From Candidatus Moraniibacteriota bacterium (GTDB lineage Bacteria; Patescibacteriota; Minisyncoccia; Moranbacterales; DUUL01), in assembly GCA_027008775.1 (NCBI GenBank), contig JALVDV010000001.1:3889-67888 (forward strand): a DNA stretch of 64,000 nucleotides, written 5' to 3'. The translations under genes and the position numbers were made by a program. Shown here piece by piece: positions 25,647-35,126 of this stretch; position 1 is the stretch's first letter; each line of letters begins with the position of its first letter. The notes below the pieces were generated by a model, which saw nothing but the letters and a program-made list of their open reading frames with translations, had not been told where the DNA came from and did no database searches.

Positions 25647-25675
25647 TTGACAAAGTTTTTTAGCAATCGTATAAT
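25647..25675 (+). promoter_or_regulatory. Consensus sigma70 promoter of the ATP synthase operon
   Basis: TTGACA (25647-25652), 17-nt spacer, TATAAT (25670-25675). Confidence 0.65.
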
Positions 25676-25709
25676 AAGAGCGTGGTCAAGAGCTTATACC
25701 ACGACGGAA

Positions 25710-26024
25710 ATGAGTAAATTTAAAAAAGAGAATAGAACAAAAGGAGGAGACGGTGATTGGTCTCTTTTCTCTTTGGCCTGGGATCTAGGTTGGATGATAG
25801 CCATTCCCATTATTCTCTTCGGAGTGGGTGGCGCGATTATGGACAAAAAACTGCACAGTTCTCCCTGGCTTCTTCTGTTAGGGTTTGCAATTTCTCTTAG
25901 CTTGACCTCTTTTTTTATTTATTTCAAAATAACCAAGGTGCTCAACGAAATTGATCAGAGCGCCGGCGAGACAAAAACATTAGCCAATCAACAAAACGAC
26001 AGGTATGACAGAGGCTCTCATTAA
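25710..26024 (+). CDS. AtpZ/AtpI-like small membrane protein preceding atpB
   Basis: Two TM helices (LAWDLGWMIAIPIILFGVGGAIM; LLLLGFAISLSLTSFFIYF) immediately upstream of atpB. The ORF-track TTG start at 25647 coincides with the promoter -35; the first ATG is at 25710. Confidence 0.45.
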   Translation: MSKFKKENRTKGGDGDWSLFSLAWDLGWMIAIPIILFGVGGAIMDKKLHSSPWLLLLGFAISLSLTSFFIYFKITKVLNEIDQSAGETKTLANQQNDRYDRGSH

Positions 26025-26769
26025 ACCATCATTCAAACCGGAAATCGTAGCCAATGTAGGAAATCTCCCGATAACCAATTCTTTTTTGGTTACAATTATT
26101 ATCAGTTTGATAATTATTATTGGAGCTTTGTCCATTAAAAAAAGACTGAAAAAGAATCAACCGGGCGGATTGCAAAATTTGATTGAATTGATTTTTGAGA
26201 AGTTACTGGAACTAATGGATGGTATCACCGGCAGTAGAGAGCAAACCAAACAGTTTTTTCCACTGGTGGCCACCATTTTTATTTTTGTTTTATTGGTGAA
26301 TTGGGTGGAGGTATTGCCCGGCTTGGGAACCATTGGGGTTGAACAACATCATCACGGAGAGAAAATTTTGGCGCCCTTTATCAGAAGTGGCGCCGCTGAT
26401 TTGAATCTAACCTTGGTTATCGCTCTAATTTCTGTTATTGCCACTCAAATTATTGGAGTCTCCGCCTTAGGTGTGAAAAAGTATTTGGGAAAATTTCTCG
26501 TTAGTCCTTTACAAAAACCGTATTTCATTGGCACTTTCGTTGGTTTGTTGGAAATTATTTCCGAGTTTGCCAAAATCATCTCTTTTTCCTTCCGTCTCTT
26601 TGGAAATATTTTTGCCGGGGAGGTGTTGTTGACGGTAATGTTAATGCTAGTGCCACTGTTTGTGCCATTGCCATTTTTGTTTTTGGAGATTTTCGTCGGT
26701 TTTATCCAAGCGGCCGTTTTTGCCATTTTAACACTGGTTTTTATGAAAATGGCCACCGAAGCGCACTGA
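26005..26769 (+). CDS. atpB: F0F1 ATP synthase subunit a
   Basis: Conserved Arg in SFRLFGNIFAGE; polytopic. Confidence 0.92.
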   Translation: MTEALIKPSFKPEIVANVGNLPITNSFLVTIIISLIIIIGALSIKKRLKKNQPGGLQNLIELIFEKLLELMDGITGSREQTKQFFPLVATIFIFVLLVNWVEVLPGLGTIGVEQHHHGEKILAPFIRSGAADLNLTLVIALISVIATQIIGVSALGVKKYLGKFLVSPLQKPYFIGTFVGLLEIISEFAKIISFSFRLFGNIFAGEVLLTVMLMLVPLFVPLPFLFLEIFVGFIQAAVFAILTLVFMKMATEAH

Positions 26770-26827
26770 GAAGTGATTTCAATTTTAAATTTTAATAATT
26801 TAAAAATTAATTAATTAAAAGAATAAT

Positions 26828-27103
26828 ATGTCAGTTTCACCAGATGATGCTAAAATGATTGCTGAAAACGCCACCCAAAGCGTGGAGTCGGCCAAAATGT
26901 TTGCTGCCGCCATTTCTATGGGCTTGGGAGCCATCGGACCGGGCTTGGGTATCGGAATTTTGGCCTCCAAGGCTCTGGAAGCTATCGGACGAAATCCGGA
27001 AGCGGCTCCTAAAATCCAAACGGTAATGATTTTGGCCATTGCTTTCACCGAAGCTATTGCCATTTATGCCCTGGTAGTTGCTTTAATTATTAAATTTGTT
27101 TAG
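26828..27103 (+). CDS. atpE: F0F1 ATP synthase subunit c
   Basis: Hairpin with [12 protein letters not shown] and the proton-binding Glu in [12 protein letters not shown]. Confidence 0.93.
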
Positions 27104-27110
27104 ATAGATA

Positions 27111-27137
27111 GTTATCAGTTATCAGTTATCGGTTCGC
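27111..27137. repeat. Left arm of a ~25-nt inverted repeat flanking the four-helix-bundle gene
   Basis: gttatcagttatcagttatcggttcgc; the reverse complement of 27598-27623 matches at ~24/25 positions. Confidence 0.7.
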
Positions 27138-27219
27138 AGCAAAATGTGAGCCGATGACGGGTAAGCGATGTGAATTAATTTGGAATTACAATTTGAAATG
27201 CATAAATGGATAAAAAAAT

Positions 27220-32273: not shown

Positions 32274-32301
32274 ATTTATGATTTATGATTTACGATTTAA
32301 G
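32274..32301. repeat. Four tandem 7-mers (ATTTATG ATTTATG ATTTACG ATTTAAG) just after vapC
   Basis: Direct reading of the sequence. Confidence 0.5.
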
Positions 32302-32465
32302 AAAATATATTGTAAATTGTGGATTGTAAGTTCTAATTAAAATTCTAGACAGGCGAATGCCTGGTTGAACATTAAACATTGAATTAAAATTTAAAATTTA
32401 CAAATTAAAATTTTTGTAAAGAAGTATATTGAAAATTTAATAACGAATACTTTTAGGAAACAAAA

Positions 32466-32741
32466 TTGTTTCTAAAAAAAATAGAAAAGGAGGAAGGTTG
32501 GTTATGGGAAAAGAAAAAAGCTATAAATGGTGTAATAATTATTACTCCAATTGTTCAGGATAAGGAGGACTGTAGTTATTCTATTTCCGTGTACGACAGA
32601 AGATTTAACGTGTGCACTTTCGAGATAAGTCTCGCACACGTAGGTGTCAAGGTAGATATTCCAACTGCCATTATCTATGCCCAGAGAGTTTTACAGACCA
32701 TTCTCGTTTCCCGTTTCCTAAAAGTATTGGTTAGATTGTAA
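32466..32741 (+). CDS. Orphan 91-aa ORF in the AT-rich spacer before atpD (possibly non-coding)
   Basis: Open frame only, with no recognisable motif. Confidence 0.2.
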   Translation: MFLKKIEKEEGWLWEKKKAINGVIIITPIVQDKEDCSYSISVYDRRFNVCTFEISLAHVGVKVDIPTAIIYAQRVLQTILVSRFLKVLVRL

Positions 32742-32795
32742 TAAAAAATTAACGAATTATTATTTAATTAAAAGATAATATTAAAAGATAATTTT

Positions 32796-34169
32796 ATGAA
32801 CAAAGGAAAAATTACACAAATTATTGGTCCCGTAGTGGATGTTGAATTTAAGGAAAAAATGCCTAAAATTCATCAAGCCTTAGAAGTACAAAAAAACGAA
32901 AAAGAGAAATTAGTTTTAGAAGTGCATCAGCATTTAGGAGCTAACCAAGTCAGAGCAGTGGCGATGGGATCTACGGATGGATTAAAAAGACAATTGGAGG
33001 TGATAGATACGGGCGCGCCAATTCAAGTTCCCGTAGGCAAAGAAATCCTGGGCAGAATGTTCAATCTTCTCGGAGAAACGATTGACGGTCGTGGACCGGT
33101 GCCGGCGGAAGAAAAAAATTCCATTCACCGTTCCGCTCCGCCTTTTTCCGAACAGTCCACCAAGACTGAAATTCTGGAAACAGGTATTAAAGTAGTGGAT
33201 CTGATTTGTCCCTTCATTAAAGGAGGAAAAGTTGGTTTATTTGGTGGCGCCGGTGTGGGAAAAACAGTCATTATTCAGGAATTAATTAGGAATATTGCTC
33301 AAGAGCACGGAGGTTATTCTGTTTTTGCCGGAGTGGGAGAAAGAACCAGAGAAGGGAATGATCTCTATCATGAGATGAAAGATTCCGGCGTTTTGGACAA
33401 AACCGCCTTGGTTTTTGGACAAATGAATGAACCACCGGGAGCTAGACAACGAGTGGCTCTATCCGCCTTGACTATGGCCGAATATTTCCGTGACCAAGAA
33501 GGAAAAGACACTCTCTTATTTATAGACAACATTTTCCGTTTCACTCAAGCCGGTTCCGAGGTATCGGCCCTGTTAGGACGAATTCCTTCCGCCGTTGGTT
33601 ACCAGCCCACCTTAGCTGAAGAAATGGGACGGTTGCAAGAAAGAATAACTTCCACCAAAAAAGGTTCGGTCACTTCCGTGCAGGCAGTTTATGTGCCGGC
33701 TGACGACTTAACCGATCCGGCTCCGGCCACCACTTTTGGTCACCTTGATTCCACGGTGGTGCTTTCCCGTAGTCTGGCGGAATTGGGAATTTACCCGGCG
33801 GTTGATCCTCTTGATTCCAGTTCCACCATCCTGGATCCCAACATTGTCGGCCAAGAACATTATGAAGTGGCCGCCGGCGTTCAAAAAGTTTTGCAACGCT
33901 ACAAAGATTTACAAGATATCATTGCCATTTTGGGAATAGAAGAATTGTCTGATGAAGATAAACTGATTGTTTCCCGCGCGCGCAAAATCCAAAAATTCCT
34001 ATCCCAACCGTTTTTTGTAGCGGAGCAATTTACCGGCACTCCGGGGAAATATGTTAAATTGACTGACACCATCAAAGGCTTTAAAATGATTTTGGACGGG
34101 GAGATGGACGAAGTCAGTGAAAATGAATTTTATATGAAAGGCGGAATATCAGAGATCAAGAAACAGTGA
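32796..34169 (+). CDS. atpD: F0F1 ATP synthase subunit beta
   Basis: Walker A GGAGVGKT and DELSEED-like region. Confidence 0.97.
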
Positions 34170-34271
34170 TCAGTGTTCAGTAGATAATTACGGAAAAATG
34201 ACTAGCAACAAGGGATCGATCATGAATAACGAGGAGTAGATAACAAATAAGGAGGGAACAATGATAAAAAC

Positions 34272-34628
34272 ATGGAAAAAAGTGTGTTAAAAAAGAAGGC
34301 AGATAAATTAGCACATCTTGGCTATGACTTAACTTTTAAATTTCCGAAAAATGAATTGTTTTGCTTGACATCCCAAGTTAGGAGAGCTCTTCTGTCTGTT
34401 CCGTCTAATATAGTTGAAGGGTATTCTAGAAATAAAAAGAAAGTGTTTGTTAATCATTTAGAAATAGCGTATGGTTCTTTAGCTGAAGCAAAATACCAAA
34501 TGAATTTTGCCTGTAAAAGAAATTATATACCCAAACGAGACTATTTGAAATTTCATGCTTTAGCCGAAGAAGTCAGTAAAATGTTGTGGGCGAGCATAAA
34601 TACATTAACAAAAGTTAAAAGTAATTAG
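34272..34628 (+). CDS. Four-helix-bundle protein (23S rRNA IVS protein family), second copy
   Basis: RRALLSVPSNIVEGYSR...E signature. Shine-Dalgarno AAGGAGG upstream. Flanked by short ATCAGTG/CACTGAT inverted repeats. Confidence 0.85.
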   Translation: MEKSVLKKKADKLAHLGYDLTFKFPKNELFCLTSQVRRALLSVPSNIVEGYSRNKKKVFVNHLEIAYGSLAEAKYQMNFACKRNYIPKRDYLKFHALAEEVSKMLWASINTLTKVKSN

Positions 34629-34688
34629 TGGACAAATGCAATGATTAGTGTATTACTGTTCATTGTCTATTGTTCATTGCTCACTGAT

Positions 34689-35126
34689 ATGAATATTAAA
34701 TTTAAAATAGTTACTCCGGAAAGAACTGTTCTGGAACAAGAAATAACTCAAGCCACTATTCCCACAGTGGTAGGTGAGATAACCATTCTACCAAATCACC
34801 GCTCCTACATTGCCGGTCTTAAACCGGGAGAAATTCTGGTAAAATGTTTGGAGCAAGGGAAAACCAAGGATTGTGCCCTGGCGGTTTCCGGCGGTTTTGT
34901 GGAATTTCATAACAATGAACTAACAATCTTGGCTGATACCGCCGAGCGAGCGGAAGAACTTGATTTGAAACGAGCCGAAGAGGCCAGAAAACGGGCCGAG
35001 GAATTGAAAAAACGCAAAATTACCGACGAAAAAGAGTATGCTACTGTTTTGGCTCAACTGGAGAAAGAACTGGCCAGAATCAAAGTGGCTAAAAAGTGGC
35101 GCAAATTGCGACCACGTCTAAAATAA
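34689..35126 (+). CDS. atpC: F0F1 ATP synthase subunit epsilon
   Basis: MNIKFKIVTPERTVLEQEI...; first ATG at 34689. Confidence 0.88.
   Translation: MNIKFKIVTPERTVLEQEITQATIPTVVGEITILPNHRSYIAGLKPGEILVKCLEQGKTKDCALAVSGGFVEFHNNELTILADTAERAEELDLKRAEEARKRAEELKKRKITDEKEYATVLAQLEKELARIKVAKKWRKLRPRLK

Follow-up and report, generated by a model that had tools for sequence, protein, structure and literature searches.

Intervening sequences (IVSs) of bacterial 23S rRNA are the closest described counterparts of the elements considered here. In Coxiella burnetii, the 23S IVS is 428 nt long and consists of a 28-bp stem of terminal inverted repeats, an S23p open reading frame (ORF) that is decaying and probably untranslated, and three tandem GACAGAT heptamers 5' of this ORF; cleavage by RNase III falls inside the stem, at the first repeat (PMC4990558). 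In bacteria of the Candidate Phyla Radiation (CPR), those rRNA insertions that are not introns carry genes for 23S_rRNA_IVP and for GIY-YIG proteins (Tsurumaki et al., 2024, PMC11270868). Separately, genomes of Beggiatoaceae, Cyanobacteria, and Bacteroidetes have been described as containing direct repeats of TAACTGA heptamers just 5' of start codons, with hundreds of solo direct arrays per genome, one indirect repeat, and no link made to four-helix-bundle (4HB) genes (MacGregor, 2015, PMC4679880), and reporter assays in Nostoc showed that heptamer repeats affect expression (bioRxiv 10.1101/2022.06.06.494920). Here, we analyzed a 64-kb stretch of DNA from a Candidatus Moraniibacteriota bacterium (contig JALVDV010000001.1, positions 3,889 to 67,888; hereafter, the window), in which two genes encoding S23p-type 4HB proteins, 4HB-1 and 4HB-2, lie between genes of the ATP synthase (atp) operon, each within what is very probably a cassette bounded by inverted heptamer arrays (cassettes 1 and 2; Table 1). 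To our knowledge, rRNA IVSs have stood unexplained since 1990, and the S23p/4HB family is large, with no known function outside diversity-generating retroelements (DGRs).

Both 4HB-1 and 4HB-2 are members of the TIGR02436/PF05635 S23p/23S-rRNA-IVS protein family, with scores far above the cutoffs of both profiles (Table 1). The two proteins are 36% identical to each other, and no further copy is present in the 64 kb. By sequence, they match the pentameric structure 2GSC (XCC0516; E=1e-15, 3e-12) as well as 2RLD, and the entries of both structures contain 5 chains each. The Avd protein of DGRs belongs to a homologous 4HB fold family, as reflected in a weaker bAvd-like match of 4HB-2 (PF22296) and in scores of 30.9 and 37.5 bits with the Avd equivalog NF033474, which are well under its 80-bit cutoff. 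However, unlike in DGRs, neither a reverse transcriptase nor template/variable repeats adjoin the 4HB genes, whose neighbors are atp genes; with NF033474 also below its cutoff, these genes do not qualify as the Avd component of a DGR.

Both 4HB genes are flanked by inverted heptamer arrays of 3–5 units, (C[AG]GTNNN)n on the 5' side and (NNNAC[CT]G)n on the 3' side; the left arms begin 0–5 nt after the upstream stop codon, and the right arms end 1–6 nt before the next start codon. A preliminary description of the locus had reported a near-perfect inverted repeat around the first 4HB gene. This repeat is real, comprising 28 nt with 93% complementarity (27108–27135/27598–27625), and its units read AGTTATC AGTTATC AGTTATC GGTTC on the left and GAACCGA TAACTGA TAACCGA TAAC on the right (Tandem Repeats Finder, period 7). 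An 18-nt core of the arm gave six overlapping matches at three places in the 64 kb, compared with an expectation of 0.02. Folding of positions 27095–27640, as had been proposed for approximately 27100–27630, paired the cassette 1 arms in the minimum free energy (MFE) structure (z=-3.6; 0/100 shuffles), and the flank-to-flank duplex reached -52.3 kcal/mol versus -24.0±3.6 kcal/mol for shuffles. Around 4HB-2, only weaker ATCAGTG/CACTGAT flanks had been noted; these are present, but they are parts of full heptamer arrays on both sides, which also pair in the MFE structure (duplex -35.2 versus -22.7±3.8 kcal/mol for shuffles; z=-3.3). Period-7 C[AG]GT arrays of at least three units occur in the 64 kb only as the two left arms (expected, 0). 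Shuffles, permuted-flank controls, and polarity counts ruled out chance or low complexity as the origin of the repeats.

The anatomy of these cassettes follows that of the 23S rRNA IVS of C. burnetii and Leptospira (PMC4990558). The ORF family (PF05635/TIGR02436) is common to both, the sizes are similar (~520 nt for the atp cassettes, 428–444 nt in Coxiella), and both atp cassettes have the long terminal inverted-repeat stem of an IVS (~20–30 bp in general, ~28 bp in Coxiella). In each, the S23p ORF lies in the loop, in sense orientation within the host transcript, and the 5' arm contains CAG-core tandem heptamers. The differences concern location, processing, and the state of the protein: the atp cassettes occupy the intercistronic mRNA spacers atpE–atpF and atpD–atpC, not helix 25 or 45 of 23S rRNA; RNase III excision is known for rRNA IVSs, whereas for the atp cassettes it can be proposed only by analogy; and strong purifying selection acts on the atp 4HB protein, in contrast to the decay of the Coxiella ORF. 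The CPR rRNA insertions (PMC11270868) belong to the same phylum-level group and share the non-intron cargo types 23S_rRNA_IVP and GIY-YIG as well as the status of presumed IVS-type, RNase III-processed elements; they reside, however, in 16S and 23S genes, while here and in relatives the cargo genes lie between atp genes (4HB; GIY-YIG in L008; L numbers designate retrieved loci).

The arm architecture was then evaluated across the family. A metagenome scan provided 80 diverse 4HB loci, 36–56% identical to 4HB-1, and 68 of these with both flanks were subjected to an inverted-repeat test with 200-nt flanks, using flanks paired between loci as the control. The best inverted-repeat score had a median of 30, compared with a control mean of 17.6 and a control 95th percentile of 27; 41/68 loci scored at or above the 95th percentile and 15/68 at or above the 99th. 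Lag-7 autocorrelation of both flanks was 0.37 (lag 14: 0.35), versus 0.26 in the control. AGT-phased arrays of at least three units were found 15 times upstream and once downstream of 4HB genes, and ACT-phased arrays of the same length once upstream and 17 times downstream (control, 1/263 windows for each). Among the 42 cassettes with a clear inverted repeat, upstream neighbors were co-oriented in 30/35 cases, and in 25 of these the left arm began no more than 15 nt past the neighbor's stop codon. Overall, a 7-nt periodicity, a constant polarity, and inverted complementarity characterize both flanks in 68–71 unrelated metagenomic 4HB genes. These neighbors are ordinary genes, such as those for CN-hydrolase, HlyD, succinate dehydrogenase, and ATP synthase beta, and viral contigs contributed five 4HB genes with heptamer arms. 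The IVS-like character suggested for these genes in the preliminary description is strongly supported by the anatomy and its Coxiella match, and this family-wide architecture agrees with it. At two of the 80 loci (L102 and L107), the 4HB gene lies between atpD and atpC, and AtpD is 63–72% identical to that of the window. A literature search, in which subscription journals were thinly covered, turned up no paper that connects 4HB/S23p genes with heptamer arrays at their flanks outside rRNA; rRNA IVSs with S23p ORFs and start-proximal heptamer arrays are each already known, and 4HB genes as heptamer-armed cassettes within protein-coding operons were not found described in the searchable literature.

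Comparison with relatives revealed the history of cassette 1. For all nine 4HB-1 lineages with a retrieved context (63–97% identity), that context is an atp operon; the gene is found at atpE–atpF in L084, L087, L089, L091, L175, L177, and L180 and at atpF–atpH in L178 and L005. All nine lineages carry heptamer arms, of a type that varies by lineage (CAGTTAT/ATAACTG versus CAGTTCA/TGAACTG), and the arms co-vary, with 21–25 of 26 Watson–Crick pairs retained in most orthologues; the left arm is conserved in L084, L087, and L089. The dN/dS of 4HB-1 is 0.04–0.13, and its conservation exceeds that of AtpF (91% versus 64%, window versus L087). Among the window, L087, and L089, the arms are ~93–100% identical while synonymous third positions are 52–69% identical, and the spacer beside the 4HB-1 ORF has diverged. 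In L004, L006, and L007 (AtpA identity, 70–74%), atpE and atpF have no intervening gene, and L084, with 98% AtpA identity, differs from the window by three cassette-sized indels. The 4HB genes are thus insertions, as had been proposed, whereas the idea of a recent invasion does not hold for cassette 1, which has long been fixed in the atpE–atpF slot, with both arms and protein under purifying selection. Cassette 1 is an anciently fixed resident of this slot.

The clade of 4HB-2 has behaved differently. Relatives that are 69–76% identical occur at atpD–atpC (L181), at atpG–atpD (L186–191), and in a PrgI/TraC/TraG operon (L183–185), and each keeps CAGTGAA/CAATGAA-type arms. The arms and the gene are inherited as one unit, and such cassettes have been gained and lost at different atp slots among relatives. 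The notion of a mobile cassette therefore stands for the 4HB-2 clade, which moves with its arm type across loci, but not for the old and fixed cassette 1. In L183–L185 (~4001–4412), the 4HB protein is 74% identical to 4HB-2, its gene lies between the type IV secretion-like PrgI/TraC/TraG genes, and the CAATGAA arms overlap its own start codon.

Turnover extends to other slots and to other cargo. L084 carries a different 4HB cassette with a 68-nt AT-rich inverted repeat at atpA–atpG and two extra ORFs at atpH–atpA, and it lacks vapBC and orf91, which are present in the window. A GxxExxY/PDDEXK_3 gene (TIGR04256) occupies atpD–atpC in L005 (13266–13869) and L008 (12759–13355), with CAGA-type heptamer arrays in inverted orientation on its two sides (z=13.8), and hence represents an unrelated second cargo with the same kind of arm; no relatives of this gene were found in viral contigs, and among the fetched loci only the two orthologues. 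At atpG–atpD in L008 (10751–11122), a 98-aa GIY-YIG protein is encoded between the arms of a 20-nt inverted repeat (z=8.3). NUDIX and deaminase genes in other CPR atp operons have no significant flanking inverted repeat; such operons also hold DUF559 genes, HigBA-like genes, and vapBC at other slots. Perfect cargo-less hairpins of ~20 bp are present in the same atp spacers of L006 (6940–7030 and 9560–9620) and L007 (9545–9640), some of them abutting the next start codon. The atp cassettes share inverted repeats, intergenic operon spacers as their location, and cargo-less versions in relatives of this bacterium with miniature inverted-repeat transposable elements (MITEs) and repetitive extragenic palindromic (REP)-type intercistronic palindromes. 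Unlike these, they carry a conserved ORF, and their arms are built from heptamers that share a conserved core. Furthermore, no target-site duplication was seen at the cassette arm borders, no transposase lies within the atp operon, and the window holds no set of near-identical copies, as the two 4HB proteins are only 36% identical and the arms differ; the hallmarks of a MITE or transposon are therefore lacking.

Between atpA and atpG, where no gene is inserted, the preliminary description had recognized a solo copy of the arm and taken it for a footprint or target site. The copy exists, in right-arm orientation and of right-arm type; it matches the cassette 1 arm at 83–87% and is 87% complementary to the cassette 1 left arm, 3.1 kb upstream, and no local hairpin partner was found in the window (fold z=0.27). 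Its reading as a footprint fared less well, as the solo arm is conserved in L087, where it stands beside a (CAGTNNN)4 array as a cargo-less hairpin (z=-2.6), and the arms found at this place in L084 are AT-rich and unrelated, which rules out a remnant of the L084 same-slot cassette. At least two tandem forward TAACTGA-like units end just before a start codon both in the cassette 1 right arm, which includes TAACTGA TAACCGA (4–6 nt before atpF), and in the solo arm (5 nt before atpG). Judged by sequence and position, the solo arm matches the published class of TAACTGA-type start-proximal repeats (PMC4679880). The class differs in that its arrays lie 5' of many unrelated genes; the 64 kb holds three sites, all in the atp operon, and here inverted pairs surround a 4HB gene in a Patescibacterium. 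Three readings of the solo arm are conceivable, namely footprint, landing pad, and functional leader.

Taken as a whole, the two 4HB genes are best explained as IVS-type hairpin cassettes, a reading that we hold with moderate confidence. Each cassette fills its intercistronic junction exactly, in the order stop codon, arm, gene, arm, and next start codon, and is co-oriented with the operon. A consensus scan detected no strong promoter-like site directly 5' of either 4HB gene, and the cassettes, having no recognizable promoter of their own, would depend on the operon promoter for their transcription. Within the polycistronic transcript, the arms are predicted to pair into a duplex of ~26–34 bp that would loop out the cassette and set the upstream stop codon beside the downstream start codon. 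Such a duplex would be an RNase III substrate of the type seen in rRNA IVSs, and by the same analogy cleavage there would yield a separate 4HB mRNA and break the atp transcript at two places, atpE–atpF and atpD–atpC. The preliminary description had further suggested that such processing could give the Fo and F1 parts of the atp mRNA different stabilities. We regard the chances that the RNA stem has a function as evenly balanced, and the proposal that RNase III actually cleaves the stems, which the rRNA analogy suggests, as somewhat doubtful.

Several observations weigh against this explanation. No RNase III gene motif was found within the 64 kb, a result that covers the window only and is uninformative for the whole genome. 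Across 53 stems, mismatches of the G:U type (55) did not exceed those of the A:C type (65; p=0.41); the wobble pairs thus gave no signal of RNA-specific selection. The arms of L175 and L178 pair at only 14–17 of the 26 positions, and the stem of cassette 2 is the weaker of the two. The strong conservation of 4HB-1, unlike the decaying Coxiella ORF, implies that this protein has some role outside the cassette model. Moreover, stem formation alone would not require a conserved CAGT/CAGA core whose polarity is the same in different phyla; this core points to a factor that reads the sequence.

The main rival explanation places the action of the arms at the DNA level: they would bound a small mobile element that is not autonomous and offer multiple sites for binding by a recombinase or by the pentameric 4HB protein itself, and the RNA stem would be incidental. 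The 7-nt period of the core with its fixed polarity, the symmetric mismatch spectrum, the travel of the arm type with its gene between unrelated loci, the cargo-less arm pairs in L087, L006, and L007, and the presence of the same kind of arm around GxxExxY all speak for it. Nevertheless, we consider a DNA-level role unlikely: neither a transposase nor a recombinase lies in or beside the cassettes, whose neighbors are atp or ordinary metabolic genes, and target-site duplications were not seen. The long-fixed arms of 4HB-1 are nearly invariant while synonymous sites saturate, which argues that they are not merely relics of past mobility, and the strong co-orientation with host transcription (30/35) implies a transcript-level dependency.

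The other two rivals are weaker. According to one, the heptamer arrays are TAACTGA-type translational or post-transcriptional leaders for atpF, atpG, and atpC, and the upstream inverted copy only modulates them. All three arrays run forward and end 1–6 nt before a start codon, as in PMC4679880, the cassette 1 right arm and the solo arm (TGATAACCGATAAC) contain the corresponding heptamers, and such repeats alter expression in the Nostoc reporters cited above. We find this account improbable, as the arrays in the 64 kb are confined to the two cassettes and the solo arm, those 5' of the 4HB genes are in reverse orientation, and cassette-free relatives have no such array before atpF. The missing Shine–Dalgarno (SD) motif at atpF, atpG, and atpC, once considered as a sign of a special leader role, was dropped because the organism is SD-poor overall: an SD-like motif precedes only 10/57 long ORFs of the window. 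Even less probable, in our view, is that this clade of Moranbacteria has domesticated 4HB-1 as a genuine accessory component of its atp operon, with the arms as its expression control. The confinement of all nine retrieved 4HB-1 lineages to atpE–atpF or atpF–atpH, together with the low dN/dS and a conservation exceeding that of AtpF, is what would be expected of such a gene. However, the equally distant L004 and L006 (AtpA, 72–74%) do without it, TIGR02436 as a family is found with the same arms on viral contigs, in rRNA genes, and in operons of unrelated function, and other atp slots hold different selfish-type genes; in addition, we know of no ATP synthase role for the 4HB fold.

If the IVS-type cassette reading is correct, the hairpin-plus-heptamer plan, which recurs in mRNA operons of different phyla and is subject to purifying selection, would make the IVS a general cassette type instead of an rRNA curiosity, and with the TIGR02436 family a class of cassettes between genes of ordinary operons may have escaped notice. 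This offers a route to the function of the large orphan S23p/4HB family and connects it with heptamer arrays that stand unexplained in several phyla, with the 4HB protein as a candidate reader of the arrays. Should the stems be cleaved, an essential operon would contain processing points after the Fo genes atpZ-B-E and before atpC, and subunit stoichiometry could be affected in minimal-genome organisms. A broader conjecture, which we rate as rather unlikely in its entirety, is that TIGR02436 genes (perhaps also GxxExxY and GIY-YIG genes) with inverted CAGT-core heptamer arrays form widespread, undescribed, promoter-less hairpin cassettes in operon stop/start junctions and rRNA helices; the pentameric 4HB protein would be the heptamer reader, and the TAACTGA- or STRR (short tandemly repeated repetitive)-type arrays near starts in Beggiatoaceae, Cyanobacteria, and Bacteroidetes would be solo arms or landing pads.

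Table 1. Features of the atp operon region, in window coordinates.
Feature	Coordinates	Strand	Remarks
Promoter-like site TTGACA-17-TATAAT	25647-25675	+	12/12 of sigma-70-type consensus; consensus scan
atpZ-like (PF09527)	25647..	+	ORF listing, profile match; first gene of the atp operon
atpB	26005-26769	+	
atpE	26828-27103	+	
Cassette 1 left arm	27108-27139	+	AGTTATC AGTTATC AGTTATC GGTTCGCAG, (C[AG]GTTAT)n; starts 5 nt past the atpE stop
Spacer, left arm to 4HB-1 start	27140-27219	+	~27140-27175 conserved in orthologues, able to lengthen the stem
4HB-1 gene	27220-27567	+	115 aa; PF05635 E=1.8e-30, 105.7 bits (cutoff 33.8); TIGR02436 97.4 bits (cutoff 24)
Cassette 1 right arm	27593-27625	+	ACCGTGA ACCGATA ACTGATA ACCGATA ACC; ends 4-6 nt before the atpF ATG
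atpF	27630-28124	+	
atpH	28158-28556	+	
atpA	28709-30202	+	
Solo arm	30238-30269	+	ACTGCGAACCGAGTTCTGATAACCGATAACTA; ends 5 nt before the atpG ATG; right-arm orientation and type
atpG	30275-31231	+	
vapBC promoter-like site	31457-31485	+	11/12; consensus scan
Three 18-nt direct repeats	31469-31517		just 5' of vapB
vapB	31522-31827	+	MazE/AbrB-type, PF04014 E=1.2e-5
vapC	31814-32266	+	PIN, PF01850 E=5.5e-11
Tandem heptamers (GATTTAT)x4	32265-32302	+	directly past the vapC stop
Element of 293 nt holding orf91	32441-32461 / 32713-32733		21-nt inverted repeat, 95%; fold z=-4.4; arms not heptamer arrays
orf91 (orphan)	32466-32741	+	91 aa
atpD	32796-34169	+	
Cassette 2 left arm	34164-34190	+	CAGTGAT CAGTGTT CAGTAGA TAATTA; overlaps the atpD stop codon
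4HB-2 gene	34272-34628	+	118 aa; PF05635 E=1.2e-29, 103.1 bits (cutoff 33.8); TIGR02436 103.1 bits (cutoff 24)
Cassette 2 right arm	34655-34688	+	ATTACTG TTCATTG TCTATTG TTCATTG CTCACTG; ends 1-4 nt before the atpC ATG 34689
atpC (epsilon subunit)	34689-35126	+	start read as MNIKFKIVTPE

The interval 25647–35126 is a single co-directional ATP synthase operon, and ORFs and profile matches gave the same gene order as first described: atpZ-like-B-E-(4HB)-F-H-A-G-(vapB-vapC-orphan)-D-(4HB)-C. The promoter consensus at its beginning coincides in part with the TTG listed as the start of the atpZ-like gene, whose true start must therefore be sought further downstream, and the start of atpC is most likely ATG 34689 rather than 34641. 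The only plus-strand terminator-like hit within the operon lies inside atpA and is at chance level. No Rfam family matched within 25000–36000 at E<=1, and across the whole 64 kb Rfam identified one tRNA (49528–49599) and no rRNA gene. The closest species representatives are Moranbacteria (L004, L006, and L007; AtpA identity, 70–74%), and the host is a Moranbacteria-like Patescibacterium (CPR).

The gap between atpG and atpD holds the vapBC module and the orf91 element. vapB and vapC overlap by 14 nt in the arrangement of a type II VapBC system, and the 18-nt repeats 5' of vapB are probably the vapBC operator. This slot is free of vapBC in L084, L004, L006, and L007. Beyond vapC, an AT-rich heptamer run at 32384–32413 closely resembles the right arm of the atpA–atpG 4HB cassette of L084. 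For orf91, no homologue was found besides orf91 itself. A strong SD at 32487–32497, followed in another frame by ATG 32504, defines a 19-aa ORF within the orf91 element; the 91-aa protein may therefore not be the true product. The 290 nt that separate atpG from vapB hold two overlapping ORFs of ~60 aa, one on the minus strand (31182–31364) and one on the plus strand (31281–31460), neither with a Pfam or NCBIfam match; public gene calls are split on the strand, and the minus-strand ORF has a strong SD.

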